Assembly: GCA_947626895.1 (NCBI GenBank)
Contig: CANQTY010000002.1
Coordinates: 6,318 to 70,317, forward strand
Origin: an uncultured Bacilli bacterium
Lineage (GTDB): Bacteria; Bacillota_I; Bacilli_A; RFN20; CAG-449
DNA length: 64,000 nucleotides
Reading direction: 5' to 3'
Shown: one piece after another, positions 37,537 to 45,247 of the stretch
Layout: every line of letters begins with the position of its first letter
Numbering within the stretch: position 1 is the first letter of the stretch
Notes under the pieces: generated by a model
Seen by the model: only the letters and a program-made list of their open reading frames with translations
Database searches by the model: none
What the model was told of the DNA's origin: nothing
Position numbers and translations under genes: made by a program

Positions 37537-37570
37537 AAAAAATAGGTTCGACAAAACCTATTAAAATCTC
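37537..37570 (-). terminator. Rho-independent terminator between the 119-aa gene and spoIIAA.
   Basis: aataggtt cgacaa aacctatt perfect 8-bp stem with a long T-run on the minus strand. Confidence 0.65.
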
Positions 37571-37600
37571 TAAATCTTCGCTTTTTTTATAAATTCAATA

Positions 37601-37960
37601 TCAAATAGTTGCTTCTAGATTTTCTGGATTTTTTAAAAGAAGACGATATTCTTTTAATTTCTTTTCAAGCTCTCTACGATAAGAAATTTTGCTTCTTAAT
37701 TTTTCAACTTTTCTTGTTTTAATATACTTTTCTTGTCTTTTACCCCCGACATAGTAACGACGATAATAATAGTACTTATTATTGATCTTTTTTCTTCCAA
37801 TAGAACCTTTAGGTAAGGAATTAATTTCCTTTTGAAGTTTCATAATTTCCTCTCTTAGTTCATAAATGCTCATTTTTGTCACGCCCTTTTCTTCATATTT
37901 AATACTCGATATTATAGCACACTTTTTTAGGGTATAAAGATTTTTTGATTTATTTATCAA
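37601..37960 (-). CDS. Small, highly basic hypothetical protein (Lys/Arg/Tyr-rich, KINNKYYYYRRYYVGGKRQEKYIK).
   Basis: 119-aa ORF with strong positive charge and a predicted coiled-coil N-terminus. Likely nucleic-acid binding. Confidence 0.35.
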   Translation of the reverse strand: MINKSKNLYTLKKCAIISSIKYEEKGVTKMSIYELREEIMKLQKEINSLPKGSIGRKKINNKYYYYRRYYVGGKRQEKYIKTRKVEKLRSKISYRRELEKKLKEYRLLLKNPENLEATI

Positions 37961-38048
37961 TTTGTTTTTTTAATAGGAATACCCTAAAAAAAGAGAGTAC
38001 AACTTATACCCTCTTTTTACATAAAACTTACATTATTTTAAGAAAATA

Positions 38049-40580
38049 TTACTTCATTTTTTTAATGATATAATCGGTATCATCATAGAAATTCGTAGTA
38101 CATTCTACGACATAATCTTTATCGAAGAAAGTTCTTACTAAACCCACTAAAAGATACTTGTTCCAAGGATAATCAAATGAAGGTAATCCGAAATATCCAT
38201 TAAAGGTATTTGTATCGATAGAATCTGCATTCAAGAAGAGTAAATCTAAAAGCTTTTTCACTTCATTAATCTTCTCTTTTTGTCTTGAAAAACGCGACTT
38301 TTTAACCATCGTATCCATATTGACTTGAACATAATCATCACTCATTTCATCCATGAAGGATAAATAGCTATATAATCCACGCATATTTAGTTTAGCACTA
38401 TAATTTTTAATCGTTTTAAAATCAAATTTATCTAACGTCTTCACATAGTTTTTAATGACCGTATGAGCATTTCTATAACCTTGATTTTCTGTGGAAATGA
38501 TTGGTCTACTATAGAAATATTTATCTTTAAAATAATACTTAATTAAGGAGAATAAAGCATATTGATCATAAGCGATTTTTAATCCATCAAGAAGTTCTTT
38601 ATGATCTGTAGCGAGTTTTGCATAAATCTTTCTTGAAGTAATGATTTTTGTATCCATTTCATTCATCAATTCATCAATATAATTTCCCAATTTTTCGACT
38701 GCATCTAAATCAATAGAAACATTTTTAAGATAAATGAAACGATTATAGGCTAAACAAATTAAGCCATTTTGTTCTTCTTTATAGATTAAGGTATAAATCG
38801 TATAATCTTTAATTCCTATAAACTTTTCTTTTAATTCTTCAAGAGTGAAACTACCTTGATAGGATTGCATCGCATGAATGATTGATTCTCCACTTGTAAC
38901 AAAGACATCACCAATAGATATATAATCTCTTTTGGTATTAAATTCGCTTCCTAATAAGGGATCAAGAACGCCCTTTAAGTAATAACGATTGCTAATTCCA
39001 AGCGCGGTTAATGGTTCTTTAAAATGTTCAAAAACCGATAAATAATAGACCATTGGTTTACTTTGCAAGATGTAATTTACAATTTCATCTTTTAATTCTT
39101 CATCAAGCGTTAAACAACTTTCTCTATTTCTATAAGTGCCTTTATCTATTTGACAATAAGATGCTCTTTCTAAATATCCTTGAATTGAATGAGGTGAAGG
39201 AATTTCATTATTCTTTCCATATTTCTTTTCAAATATTTCTTTTAATTTGGCATATTGAGCATTATTTCCTAATTTATACCCATCTGGATATAAAGAATCG
39301 ATTAAATCAAGCATTAAATCTTTAATCGAAGTTCCATTTTTTAAATAGATGCCCTTTTGGTATTCATGATAATGAAATTGAATTAAATTCTTTTTAAAAT
39401 TCGATAATGTAGAAATTTCTTCTTGACCTAAAGAATTTCCTAATTCATGAAGGGTATCTTTTACTAATTCTTCTTCATTTAATTCTTCTTTATTAAAGAT
39501 GATTTGTAATTCAGTATCAAAATGAATATTAAAATCTAAAACTTTCATGACTAATAAAGCACAATAAGCGACATAAATATCTTTAATATAGGAAATAAAA
39601 CTTGCTTCCTCTATAAAGCTTTTATGCTCTACATTTACATAGTTATATAAAGCAGTGACGATTTCTTTTACTTTACTTCCATGCTCATTTAAGATATTTA
39701 AAGCTTTTGCTTCAATTTGACGAATTCTTTCTCTTGATAAATTATTTTGATTACCTAAGGCTTCAAGGGTTAAAGGTTCTACATCACCAAAGCCAAAACG
39801 CGCATAAATTACTTCTCTTTGTAAAGGACTTAATAAATTAAAGAACTCGATGATTTTATTTTTATATGTCGATTTAAAGCTCTCTTGCAAAAGTGCTAAA
39901 TTAGAAATCATATCATCGACATGATTGCCCAAAATCAATAAAAGTGAATCGATAGAACAATTCTTTAAATCTTTAATAAAATTGATTCCGTTTGCAAACA
40001 TGATATCTAAAATTAAACGATTTTCAATAATATAACTCAAAGGAAAATCATTATAATCTAGACTTACTTTATCTAAAGCTTCACTTAACGCGCGGGTCCT
40101 TTCTAGATAATTAAGATACATATCAAAGAACAAGGCATCATAATAATCTAAAGGATAAGAAGCTTCTTCTTTAATTAATGCTAATCTTAAAGAATAATAA
40201 TCCATTAACATAAATGGAGCTTTACCAATGAAAGAAGAAAGCTCTGAAATTAAAGTATTTTTATCTTTTAAAACATCACTTGCTAAACTATCTTGGAATC
40301 TTTTTAAATGCTTAAAACAAGTCCATTGATCATCTTTTAAAGTGACATATAAAGTGGAAACACGTCTTGCTTTAACCGCGAAATGTTCCTCGATAAACTT
40401 TCTTAAATTCTTTTGGTTTACAGAACCATATATTTCATCTAAATATAAGGTTAACTGTTCCAAGGTGGCAACATCATGATTACCAATAAATAAGGCACAT
40501 TTAAAGAATAAATATCGTTCTTCAATATAAAATGATGGATAACTATCAATGCGCCTAGCAAAAAAAACATCATTACTCAT
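38049..40580 (-). CDS. Large (843 aa) hypothetical protein containing a primary-sigma-like region 4.2 HTH but no recognisable sigma regions 2/3.
   Basis: [48 protein letters not shown] aligns with sigma-70 r4.2 (LTAREAKVLRMRFGI…[27 protein letters not shown]). Nothing else in the protein is recognisable. Confidence 0.55.
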   Translation of the reverse strand: [843 protein letters not shown]

Positions 40581-40701
40581 ACAACAACCCTCATATTTAA
40601 TAATACAACAAAATAGAAAATTAAAATAGAAAATAATTGAGATTTTTGTGAAATTTTTTTAAGACTAGTTGAAAATTTATGATATTTTATACAAAAAAAC
40701 A

Positions 40702-41901
40702 TTAATAATCTCCATTTAGAAAGTAAGCAATATCAATGATTTTAATTCCTTCATAAATCATTTCATCATGATGTGTCCTTGCAATAATCATCTTAGGATA
40801 AGCATCTTTAATCGCAAGTAAGGACTTATATTCTCTTTCAAAAGTATGTGGATCATCTAAAAAATCACATACTTGAATATAAAGTTTTTGTGCTTGTTTT
40901 ATGGCGACAAAATCAATTTCTTTATCATAAAGTTTACCAATATAAACATCATATCCCCTTCTTAATAGTTCAATATAAACCATATTTTCATAAGCTCTAC
41001 CATAATCCATATTTACTGTACCCGTTAGAGCATATTTAAAAGCAACATCACATAAATAATATTTAAAGCTACTTTCTAAATATTTTTTCCCTCGAACATC
41101 ATATCGCTTTACTTTATAAAACATAAAGGAATTTTCAAAGAAGGAAATATATTTATCTACAGTTTTTCTTGTAATATCACTTTTATTTTGCGTATTTAAA
41201 CTATTGGCAATGTTATTTGGTGATATTAAATTTCCAATATTTGCCATCATATAGCGGGAAACTAGAAGTAAATCATTTACTTTTTTAATCTTATATTTAT
41301 CAATTAAATCCTTAATTAATATCGTATTATAAACATTTTTAAGATGAGTTAATTTTTCTTCTTCAGAATATAGAAAATTTTCGCTCATTCCCCCGTACAT
41401 CAAATAAGAAAAAAGCATTTCATCAACTTTATCTTCCATATGAAAATACTCTAAATATTCATGATATGAAAAAGGAAACACCTCTATATCCATAACTCTA
41501 CCTGAAAATAAAGTAGCTAAATCTGAAGTCAAAAGGAAAGCATTAGAACCTGTAATATAAATATCAAATAAATTCTTAGAATGCAAACTATTGATAGCTA
41601 ATTCAAATTGAGAACAAAGTTCAACCTCATCAATTAAAACAACATTATGTTTATTCTTTTGATAATGATCCATAACATACTGATGCAAAGCATGATAAGA
41701 AAGTAAAGATGCATTTTCTAATTCTTGAAGATTAATAAAAATTATATTGGCATCTTTTTCATTTTCCTTTAAATAATCTATAAATTGAGATAAAAGAACA
41801 GATTTTCCACATCGTCGAATTCCTGTAATAACCTTAATCGATGGAGTATTACTTAAGCGAATCATTTTGTCTAAATATCTTTTTCGAATAATATATTTCA
41901 T
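40702..41901 (-). CDS. AAA+ ATPase of the AAA_14/DUF4143 family.
   Basis: N-terminal KVITGIRRCGKSVL Walker A, LIDEVE Walker B and a DUF4143-like C-terminus. Confidence 0.6.
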   Translation of the reverse strand: MKYIIRKRYLDKMIRLSNTPSIKVITGIRRCGKSVLLSQFIDYLKENEKDANIIFINLQELENASLLSYHALHQYVMDHYQKNKHNVVLIDEVELCSQFELAINSLHSKNLFDIYITGSNAFLLTSDLATLFSGRVMDIEVFPFSYHEYLEYFHMEDKVDEMLFSYLMYGGMSENFLYSEEEKLTHLKNVYNTILIKDLIDKYKIKKVNDLLLVSRYMMANIGNLISPNNIANSLNTQNKSDITRKTVDKYISFFENSFMFYKVKRYDVRGKKYLESSFKYYLCDVAFKYALTGTVNMDYGRAYENMVYIELLRRGYDVYIGKLYDKEIDFVAIKQAQKLYIQVCDFLDDPHTFEREYKSLLAIKDAYPKMIIARTHHDEMIYEGIKIIDIAYFLNGDY

Positions 41902-42389
41902 CTTTCATTCCCACTTTCTTAATTTTTTTTATTTTTTGGTAATTAAATATTAACATAAGTATTTTTAAATTACTATAATTTATTTTAATTCATATAGAAT
42001 CTCATTATTCAAATATAAGTTAAAATGAAGATATAAAAAGCATTAACCCATTTCAAATGTAATTAATTAATCCCTTGATTTAGGAATTATTAATTGAAAC
42101 AATTTTTAAAATTGTAAATTAAAAGCACTATCTTTAATAATTACATATAAGCACAAACATTAAAAAAATGATTTAACTAGTTCATTATAAATGAATTCCC
42201 ATTTTTTTATTTTTTTTCATATTTTGGGAATAGACTTTTAAAAATTTTTAAAAATGAAATTAAAACTCTATCAATTTAGCAAAGAAAATTGCATAAAAAA
42301 AGCAGTCATCAATTGGTTTGTTAGTGCGTTCCTTAGATTGGTGATTGCTTTTATTATCCGTGAGTAAAAGAACTAAATCTTTTACTTCT

Positions 42390-42647
42390 TTAAATTAAAG
42401 AAAATAAGAAGATATTTTCTTCAAGTTTTTCTCTTTTTCCCTTTTTTGCATAGATAAATCCACTTAAAAAGTCGATGATTCTAAATCGACCAATTTCTTG
42501 CATATTACTTACATTGACTATCACATTATGTCCAGATTCTAAACATTCAATAATTTTCGATAAATCTTTATAAGCATTTGGAAAAAATACACAAGGTGTA
42601 GAATATTCTTTTTCTTGATGAACAATCCTATCTTTATAATTAGACAT
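42390..42647 (-). CDS. sepF: Minimal SepF-like (DUF552) protein consisting of the core domain only.
   Basis: GHNVIVNVSNMQEIGRFRIIDFLSGFIYAKKGKREKLEENIFLFS parallels the SepF C-terminal domain (…VVVNLQ…RIVDFLSGTVYAIGG…IFLCTP). 85 aa. Confidence 0.55.
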   Translation of the reverse strand: MSNYKDRIVHQEKEYSTPCVFFPNAYKDLSKIIECLESGHNVIVNVSNMQEIGRFRIIDFLSGFIYAKKGKREKLEENIFLFSLI

Positions 42648-44962: not shown

Positions 44963-45247
44963 TTATCCGTGTAATCCGCGAGATTGACGATCCATATCTT
45001 CGACGACAATATCATAGATTTCCCCAAGAGAGGAACAATATTCTAAAACTTTCCAGGGTTCATTCGTATGGAAATGAATTTTAATGAGTTCTTCATCGCC
45101 GACTGCAAGTAAGCAATCTCCTTTGAAGTTTTCATTAAAATAATCACTAATTTTATCCTCGTCTAAATTTTTTCCTTCAATTAATAATTGAGTGTCATAA
45201 CGAAATTCCATATAGTTCTCCTTTCTAATCTTCGTCATATTGACCAT
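44963..45247 (-). CDS. Hypothetical 94-aa protein that resembles an internal segment of DAK2/FakA-type proteins. Possible stand-alone domain or gene remnant.
   Basis: GDCLLAVGDEELIKIHFHTNEPWKVLEYCSSLGEIYDIVVEDMDRQ is similar to the …GDSLVVVGDEDLVKVHVHT…GEL…I.NMR.Q region. Its stop overlaps the ftsZ start region. Confidence 0.3.
   Translation of the reverse strand: MVNMTKIRKENYMEFRYDTQLLIEGKNLDEDKISDYFNENFKGDCLLAVGDEELIKIHFHTNEPWKVLEYCSSLGEIYDIVVEDMDRQSRGLHG

Follow-up and report, generated by a model that had tools for sequence, protein, structure and literature searches.

A probable defence-derived gene block, with a putative orphan leader protein, at the junction of two sporulation loci in an uncultured Bacilli bacterium

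The DNA considered here (the "window") is a 64,000-nt stretch from an uncultured Bacilli bacterium (assembly GCA_947626895.1, contig CANQTY010000002.1, positions 6,318 to 70,317). Two clusters of sporulation genes flank a block (~37,580 to 42,389) that encodes an 843-amino-acid (aa) protein with a sigma region 4 helix-turn-helix (HTH), an ATPase, and a small basic protein. In the map of open reading frames (ORFs), every gene between 32.8 and 47.5 kb lies on the minus strand. Following the direction of transcription, ftsA, ftsZ, a 94-aa ORF carrying a FakA middle domain, spoIIGA, sigE, sigG, and an 85-aa SepF-like ORF precede a 488-bp gap, the 399-aa ATPase gene, the 843-aa ORF, the small ORF, spoIIAA, spoIIAB, sigF, and spoVAC/D/E/F. 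The three co-directional ORFs described in the initial annotation are found on the minus strand at 37601-37960, 38049-40580, and 40702-41901, and the AT-rich non-coding stretch of ~490 bp mentioned there measures 488 bp (41902-42389, assigned to neither strand), with a GC content of 0.20 and zero ORFs of 60 aa or more. The block is probably accessory DNA of defence origin located at a lineage-specific junction, the 843-aa protein being an orphan leader, that is, a protein usually encoded at the head of a defence operon; it would have nothing to do with the control of sporulation.

The ATPase gene (40702-41901, minus strand) and the 843-aa gene (38049-40580, minus strand) are separated by a 121-bp spacer (40581-40701, minus strand) that displays neither a terminator nor a stable RNA fold (z = +1.19), and harbors a GAGGG ribosome-binding site 8 nt before the ATG of the 843-aa gene. 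An intrinsic terminator on the same strand (37985-38018; 14-bp stem followed by U7, centroid fold of -13.8 kcal/mol, z = -2.2) lies 3' of the 843-aa gene and appears to end this transcription unit. Because no terminator separates the two genes and one follows the second, they are predicted to be co-transcribed. Their promoter region is presumed to be the non-coding stretch 41902-42389, between the SepF-like gene and the ATPase gene, where the promoter-like sites are weak and sigma-70-like only (e.g., TTGAAA-17-TATCTT at 42056-42028). This stretch was left empty by the gene callers on sister contigs, contains neither a tRNA nor an Rfam match that reaches or approaches threshold, and presumably constitutes the right-hand edge of the block. 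On sister contigs, a 41-aa ORF has been called at 40577-40702, the site occupied by a 73-aa gene in the cassettes described below. It matches no Pfam or other family, bears no similarity to the 73-aa protein, and is probably spurious.

Relatives of the region were collected with a SpoIIAB scan, one genome per species, yielding 80 loci onto which all the genes of the window were mapped. The nearest loci, L019 among them (genome CANRDP01; 81% identity), come from uncultured Erysipelotrichales/"Bacilli" metagenome-assembled genomes of the rabbit gut; those of Massilimicrobiota, Longibaculum, Stoquefichus, Coprobacillus, and Thomasclavelia come next. An ftsZ, spoIIGA, sigE, sigG, or SepF-like gene occurs within ~10 kb upstream of spoIIAA in 0/80 related loci, so the premise that the spoIIA and spoIIGA-sigE-sigG loci are normally adjacent is wrong in this clade. 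None of the three block genes is found upstream of spoIIAA in any of the 80 loci, from which the 843-aa gene and the small gene are missing altogether; the distant locus L096 possesses an ATPase homologue (34%) ~7 kb downstream of spoIIAB. Gene-by-gene synteny between the window and L019 extends from spoIIAA to ~29,200 and breaks exactly upstream of spoIIAA, where L019 harbors genes for a papain/lectin surface protein, LemA, a DacF-type D-Ala-D-Ala carboxypeptidase, a MarR regulator, and a pyrimidine-nucleoside phosphorylase (pdp), a gene setting akin to that around dacF and spoIIA in Bacillus. That the two sporulation loci lie side by side thus appears peculiar to the host species. As the loci are never adjacent in the 80 relatives and synteny breaks upstream of spoIIAA, the block is placed at a lineage-specific rearrangement junction. 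A rearrangement in the host, an uncultured Erysipelotrichales species, would have set the ftsAZ-spoIIGA-sigE-sigG-sepF cluster beside the spoIIA-spoVA cluster.

The left edge of this junction can be delineated closely. The hairpin and T-run at 37537-37570 (minus strand) had been taken as a strong terminator bounding the block. The hairpin is real (-14.4 kcal/mol), yet at nearly every base it aligns with the sequence preceding spoIIAA in L019, a locus devoid of the block (alignment of the window, L019, and L020); because of this conservation, it is assigned to the ancestral spoIIA leader and not to a block boundary. The L019 homology starts at ~37580, and the left breakpoint accordingly lies between this position and 37601, where the small gene has its stop codon. 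The promoter and ribosome-binding site of spoIIAA come right after the hairpin; as the gene upstream of it in L019 is divergent, the hairpin resembles a conserved insulator or terminator of the spoIIA leader.

The same arrangement is found on all same-species contigs that carry an identical SpoIIAA or ATPase and reach far enough (at least 8 samples), and the window is 100% identical to locus L009 over 7.5 kb; the block is likewise 100% identical to contig ERZ27249462 NODE_2170. The block is therefore fixed within the species, and neither the nearest species nor any other relative examined has it. An integrated mobile element (prophage, integrative and conjugative element, or transposon) was considered and rejected: the block possesses no integrase or transposase, no flanking repeats, and no tRNA target. 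The AT-rich repeats at its flanks are at chance level, no tRNA occurs in the window and no Rfam element was found. The GC content at third codon positions of the block genes (0.155-0.205) falls inside the range of the flanks (0.145-0.255).

The 843-aa protein harbors, as claimed initially, a sigma region 4.2 HTH: Pfam Sigma70_r4 (PF04545) matches residues 250-295 with E=5.6e-12 (codons at 39696-39833, minus strand), and no second Pfam domain is found. The 13 residues of its recognition helix are the same as in group-1 sigma factors (RpoD/SigA), the best PDB match being region 4 of RpoD (1tty, 2e-9). Fold searches reveal no sigma region 2 or 3, again as proposed, and the protein thus has the region 4 HTH of the sigma-70 family without its region 2. 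A confident AlphaFold2 model, computed from a 52-sequence alignment, displays a mean predicted local distance difference test (pLDDT) value of 90.1, no segment below 50, and a predicted template modelling (pTM) score of 0.61. According to this model, the protein is composed of a helical N-terminal part, the sigma region 4 HTH, and a winged-helix array. Codons 302-843 (38052-39677, minus strand) form, by DSSP assignment on the model, repeated helix-helix-helix-strand-strand units that are interpreted as six or more winged-helix domains in tandem, and their fold matches those of UFL1, the SelB C-terminus, MarR/PadR, RPA32C, and PCI winged helices. The fold searches of the model returned sigma-4 and winged-helix matches only; the nuclease, helicase, or methylase folds that had been suggested to flank the HTH are not there, the remainder of the protein consisting of winged-helix repeats. 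Across 52 family members sharing 15-20% overall identity, R283 and Q288 are invariant and E284, R285, R287, and E290 nearly so, making the recognition helix the most conserved element of the family.

The best named match of the 843-aa protein in NCBIfam is MzaA (1.3e-14), which is also its sole PADLOC match (2.5e-10). MzaA, from the MZA system (mzaABCDE), is likewise a large defence protein in which nothing but a region 4 HTH of the primary-sigma type is recognisable. The match to the MzaA model (NF041931), however, covers the ~60-residue HTH only and scores 54 bits against a cutoff of 800 bits. The HTH is C-terminal in MzaA (model positions 643-704 of 726), whereas 540 winged-helix residues follow it in the window protein. 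Furthermore, MzaB-E are absent near the latter, the neighbours of which are the ATPase, the 90-aa small protein, and sporulation genes.

The extent of the family depends on how it is searched. A word-index search with the single sequence returned four true relatives only (one 97% copy and three distant ones), which is misleading as to rarity, and a full-length profile search was drowned by RpoD-type sigma factors through region 4; rerunning it without region 4 worked. An exhaustive profile search with the C-terminal 540 residues, HTH left out, gathered 2,006 cluster representatives at E<=1e-3, of which 819 reached E<=1e-30. The C-terminal winged-helix profile alone retrieves the whole family and is thus its defining part. 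Where sources give these proteins a name, it is "hypothetical protein". Viral contigs, the BFVD fold library, and plasmids yielded no true relative of the 843-aa or the 90-aa protein. Two subfamilies can be distinguished: long forms of ~950-1200 aa share 20-25% identity with the 843-aa protein over ~570 residues, and short forms of 828-861 aa share 31-52% identity with it over their full length, with the same domain order. Ten short-form representatives show 31-39% identity over residues 1-842, that of L119 reaches 52%, and the near-identical P0001 attains a profile score of 813 bits.

The genomic surroundings of these relatives are telling, as every relative found outside the species heads either a type 4 bacteriophage exclusion (BREX) operon or a PDC-M33 cassette. 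The long forms are encoded by the first gene before brxP-brxC-pglZ-brxL in L002, L007, L102, L104, L110, L112, and L113-L117 (e.g., L007:522-3776), PADLOC confirming BrxP (6e-232), BrxC (2e-105), and PglZ (2e-50). Type 4 is the phosphorothioate-based BREX type (PMC12914056). The leader gene is not mentioned in PMC12914056, nor in section 34 of the BREX survey PMC12839542. Long-form leaders such as P0002 and P0004 resemble the window protein in their homologous sigma-4 HTH and winged-helix array and in being the first gene product of a DNA-modification-based defence operon. They differ in their length (950-1200 aa), in their partners BrxP, BrxC, PglZ, and BrxL, and in a C-terminal domain of the RNA polymerase alpha subunit (alpha-CTD) added N-terminally to the HTH (rpoA models, 5.8e-13), all of which are foreign to the window protein: its block encodes no PADLOC match to BrxP, BrxC, PglZ, or BrxL, and the protein itself gives no match to PF03118. 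A cryptic alpha-CTD at residues 183-216 of the window protein was considered and rejected, the alpha-CTD segment of the long forms being aligned to a gap in the short subfamily, with no pairwise similarity. A variant type 4 BREX locus was also observed (L006:6274-12483), in which a 1249-aa protein matching BrxL_ATPase comes right after BrxP and precedes a cysteine desulfurase (Aminotran_5) and a NADAR protein.

The short forms outside the species are found in the same cassette of overlapping genes in 9/9 independent contexts (L099, L100, L119, L121, L124, L125, L131, L133, and L135). This cassette comprises, in order, a conserved 72-75-aa protein, the leader, a ~635-aa PDC-M33A (5e-138), a ~300-aa M33B (3e-55), and a ~255-aa DUF6339 protein, M33C (4e-38), as exemplified by L121:7780-14153. 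Six of the nine contexts also have a D12 Dam-like methyltransferase next to the cassette or coupled to it, and Cas9, type I and type III restriction-modification, ThsB-TIR, kinases, or an integrase are encoded nearby. The PADLOC candidate PDC-M33 (A, B, C) thus appears, judging from gene order, to be part of a larger conserved cassette. MANTIS was examined as the identity of the M33 and methylase cassette and proved unrelated. A faint hint of a GHKL ATPase (HATPase_c_3, residues 38-58, E=0.085) is present in PDC-M33A (L121:10579-12477). MzaB of the sigma-containing MZA system is reported to be MutL/GHKL-like, and MZA and PDC-M33 might share more than the sigma-4 module.

Set against these cassettes, the window copy shares the end-to-end architecture and length of the PDC-M33 leaders (P0303 and P0278, 828-861 aa), its nearest relative coming from the same sample series. 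It nevertheless lacks a translationally coupled 73-aa gene upstream, M33A, M33B, M33C, and a nearby methylase, and follows a PDC-S01 ATPase instead. No significant tblastn match to the 73-aa protein (six queries), M33A, M33B, or M33C was found in the 64-kb window, so not even remnants were detected there. On the strength of these comparisons, the 843-aa gene would be an orphan of the short subfamily, its usual partners gone from the 64 kb.

These contexts also bear on the proposal, made in the initial annotation, that the protein is a sigma mimic or an anti-sigma-like regulator acting on the sporulation sigma factors or their promoters. Its helix is a near-perfect group-1 sigma region 4.2 helix, the gene sits between sporulation sigma loci, and it could receive read-through from the sigG-sepF unit, behind which lies a weak hairpin with no T-run. 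The helix, however, matches the housekeeping sigma and not region 4 of the SigF/G/E/K type (SigK models, E ~1e-3), and the basic patch for activator contact that follows it, judged against E. coli sigma-70, is not kept (ten residues). Elsewhere, the family is partnered with defence genes and never with sporulation genes. Neither the nearest spore-former (L019) nor any of the 80 related spoIIA loci has the gene, and the adjacency of the sporulation loci, unique to the host species, is a lineage-specific accident. A role in sporulation thus finds no support and is regarded as highly improbable. The other suggestion, of a selfish or defence module that hitch-hiked into the locus, is borne out by the absence of the block in relatives, the synteny break, the PDC-S01 match, and the defence contexts of the relatives.

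An orphan gene may be a functionless relic. According to this alternative, the 843-aa gene would be the undecayed remnant of a degraded PDC-M33-type cassette, and the block debris at a rearrangement scar. The absence of all four or five usual partners from the window and the position of the block at a rearrangement junction are in line with it, as is a population variant (L010:5279-7781) in which a frameshifting 29-nt deletion splits the ORF into 749 + 86 aa, on a contig of ~3x coverage where the deletion may be an assembly error. The window copy, in contrast, is a full-length, intact ORF that aligns end to end with its cassette-borne relatives and retains the family-invariant residues. Its ratios of nonsynonymous to synonymous substitution rates (dN/dS) are 0.25, 0.06, and 0.15 against three population variants, on a par with sigF (0.21) and the ATPase (0.23). 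The 843-aa gene is under purifying selection, and a mere relic is considered quite unlikely. Nucleotide differences are unevenly spread along the gene: 50 of the 63 that separate the window from L001 fall in codons 181-376 (39453-40040), a stretch that takes in the sigma-4 HTH together with the first winged helix. This clustering is suggestive of a recombination tract or of local diversification.

The second main component of the block, the 399-aa ATPase, is the DUF4143 AAA ATPase that had been announced, with Pfam matches to AAA_14 (1.7e-31) and DUF4143 (1.2e-18). Furthermore, the PADLOC model of PDC-S01 (PDLC04787) covers it over its full length (residues 1-396, 2.2e-139). In an alignment of six sequences (the window protein and five homologues), the Walker A (G27-K33, with G27 and G32-K33) and Walker B (D91-E92) motifs are kept, and the C-terminal residues E328, D330, Q343, R356, and E357 are invariant. 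A degenerate PD-(D/E)xK site ("...IQVC") was considered and rejected, Q343 followed by a variable residue being the family norm. No solved structure was found for this ATPase. PDC-S01 is described as a still unvalidated single-gene candidate, an ATPase fused to a domain of the PD-(D/E)xK superfamily, and as the fourth most common candidate defence in prokaryotes (PMC12988326). The window ATPase is a full-length, motif-complete member, which differs from the described system in nothing notable except that it lies upstream of, and is predicted to be co-transcribed with, an orphan leader protein. From its motifs, it is a complete and conserved PDC-S01-type candidate anti-phage effector. Homologues occur on 226 plasmids, where they stand alone in varied contexts.

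The association of the two genes could also represent a new defence system of two or three genes (the ATPase, the 843-aa protein, and perhaps the 90-aa protein), the 843-aa protein having been recruited as a sensor or DNA-targeting subunit in replacement of its M33 or BREX partners. The predicted co-transcription across a spacer free of terminator or stable structure, with a terminator right after the 843-aa gene, agrees with this idea. So do the integrity of both genes under similar purifying selection (dN/dS of 0.23 and 0.06-0.25), the fixation of the arrangement in the species, and the modularity of the leader family, which already associates with two unrelated effector sets (BREX-4 and M33). 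Yet the 9/9 short-form relatives are found with M33ABC and without an AAA_14 gene, the pairing occurs in no other context, and the plasmid homologues of the ATPase have no such neighbour. Moreover, PDC-S01 is defined as a single-gene module, the leader comes second here and first in canonical cassettes, and L010 keeps the ATPase and loses the 843-aa ORF. A dedicated system of this kind is judged unlikely.

The last gene of the block encodes a small protein, described initially as a basic protein of 119 aa. Its basic character holds (pI 10.1), but its length does not: 90 aa, counted from an ATG, is favoured. The TTG start of the 119-aa ORF falls within an extended -10 promoter of the sigma-A type (37911-37938, minus strand; TTTATA-16-TGcTATAAT, with 10/12 matches plus the TG in a promoter scan), read from 37938 to 37911. 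The ATG at 37873 is preceded by a ribosome-binding site and was chosen by the gene callers on all sister contigs, hence the gene most likely starts there (37601-37873, minus strand). The 90-aa form gives a match to Pfam DUF6788 (PF20586) of 16.5 bits (E=0.01), below the gathering cutoff of 27.2 bits, and the 119-aa form a sub-threshold 15.6 bits; an identical 90-aa product carries PF20586 in the precomputed table of the sequence collection. No match was found in NCBIfam, PADLOC, PHROGs, or plasmids, and neither L019 nor any cassette locus carries the gene. Having a promoter of its own, the gene would make up a second transcription unit by itself.

Functionally, the 843-aa protein is best envisaged as a non-catalytic, nucleic-acid-binding scaffold, in which a helix that reads -35 elements in housekeeping sigma factors is joined to a chain of winged helices. 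In its normal cassettes (type 4 BREX, or the 73-aa protein, PDC-M33ABC, and the Dam-like methylase), it may act as a DNA-reading or regulatory subunit that positions or licenses its enzymatic partners. The window copy might survive as a stand-alone DNA-binding regulator or sensor, possibly serving the neighbouring ATPase, which is our best guess. A parallel may be drawn with the BrxR/CapW-type WYL regulators (PMC9122589, PMC9122601), which also bind DNA, are encoded by the first gene of defence operons, and are separable from the enzymatic core. BrxR, however, is a ~300-aa wHTH-WYL-WCX dimer, whereas the members of the 843-aa family are 3-4x larger and possess no WYL domain but a sigma-4 HTH and many winged helices. 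By this analogy, a BrxR-like regulatory role is one possibility for the family.

Several points weigh against the interpretation of the block as defence-derived accessory DNA with an orphan leader. The ATPase-843-aa pairing is found in no other context, which makes any cooperation between the two a matter of pure inference. PDC-S01 and PDC-M33 are themselves guilt-by-embedding candidates (Payne et al., bioRxiv 10.1101/2024.01.29.577857). The canonical partners could lie elsewhere in the genome, outside the 64-kb window, in which case the 843-aa gene would be no true orphan. The frameshifted variant L010 would make the gene dispensable, if its deletion on a contig of low coverage is genuine. 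Neither integrase or transposase nor flanking repeats, tRNA, or compositional skew marks a recent mobility of the block, and its right-hand breakpoint is approximate. Lastly, no TTGACA -35-like site occurs in the regulatory DNA of the block, leaving autoregulation through such sites unsupported. TTGACA is depleted window-wide on both strands, with 18 occurrences against 36 +/- 5.8 expected from dinucleotide-preserving shuffles (100/100 shuffles have at least 18).

A bolder hypothesis, improbable in our estimation, is that the whole family derives from copies of the two modules with which RNA polymerase reads promoters, sigma region 4 and, in the long forms, also the alpha-CTD, fused to a winged-helix chain, and that it mimics surfaces of this enzyme, its members serving as decoys or as promoter-docking subunits. 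As decoys, they could sense phage take-over factors aimed at sigma-4 or the alpha-CTD, such as AsiA-like anti-sigmas or ADP-ribosyltransferases. As docking subunits, they could direct phosphorothioation- or methylation-based immunity to transcriptionally active foreign DNA. If this were true, the orphan and the PDC-S01 ATPase-nuclease would make up a minimal sensor-effector pair born from module shuffling.

Two short genes upstream of the block deserve a mention. The SepF-like gene (42390-42647, minus strand) encodes just 85 aa with a SepF domain (6.4e-15), overlaps the sigG stop by 8 nt, and may be a truncated or minimal SepF paralogue. In the interval between ftsZ and spoIIGA, the 94-aa ORF (44963-45247, minus strand) displays the middle domain of the FakA/DAK2 family alone (PF21645, 5.6e-20), with shorter calls on sister contigs (82 or 44 aa).

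For the host genome, the outcome is deflationary: the block would be defence-type cargo at a rearrangement scar and not a hidden layer of sigma control in sporulation. The block itself is ordinary accessory DNA, and its interest resides in the unnamed leader family and in the partner-less copy. The by-product is a large family modelled in no curated library beyond its 50-residue sigma-4 HTH. Were it recognised, type 4 BREX would gain a sixth, or leader, component, and PDC-M33 would grow to a five- or six-gene system including a Dam-like methylase. It would also raise the question of why a copy of the helix with which housekeeping sigma factors read -35 elements is present in DNA-modification-based defences. 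The orphan copy of the window, finally, suggests that such a leader protein can persist without its usual partners.

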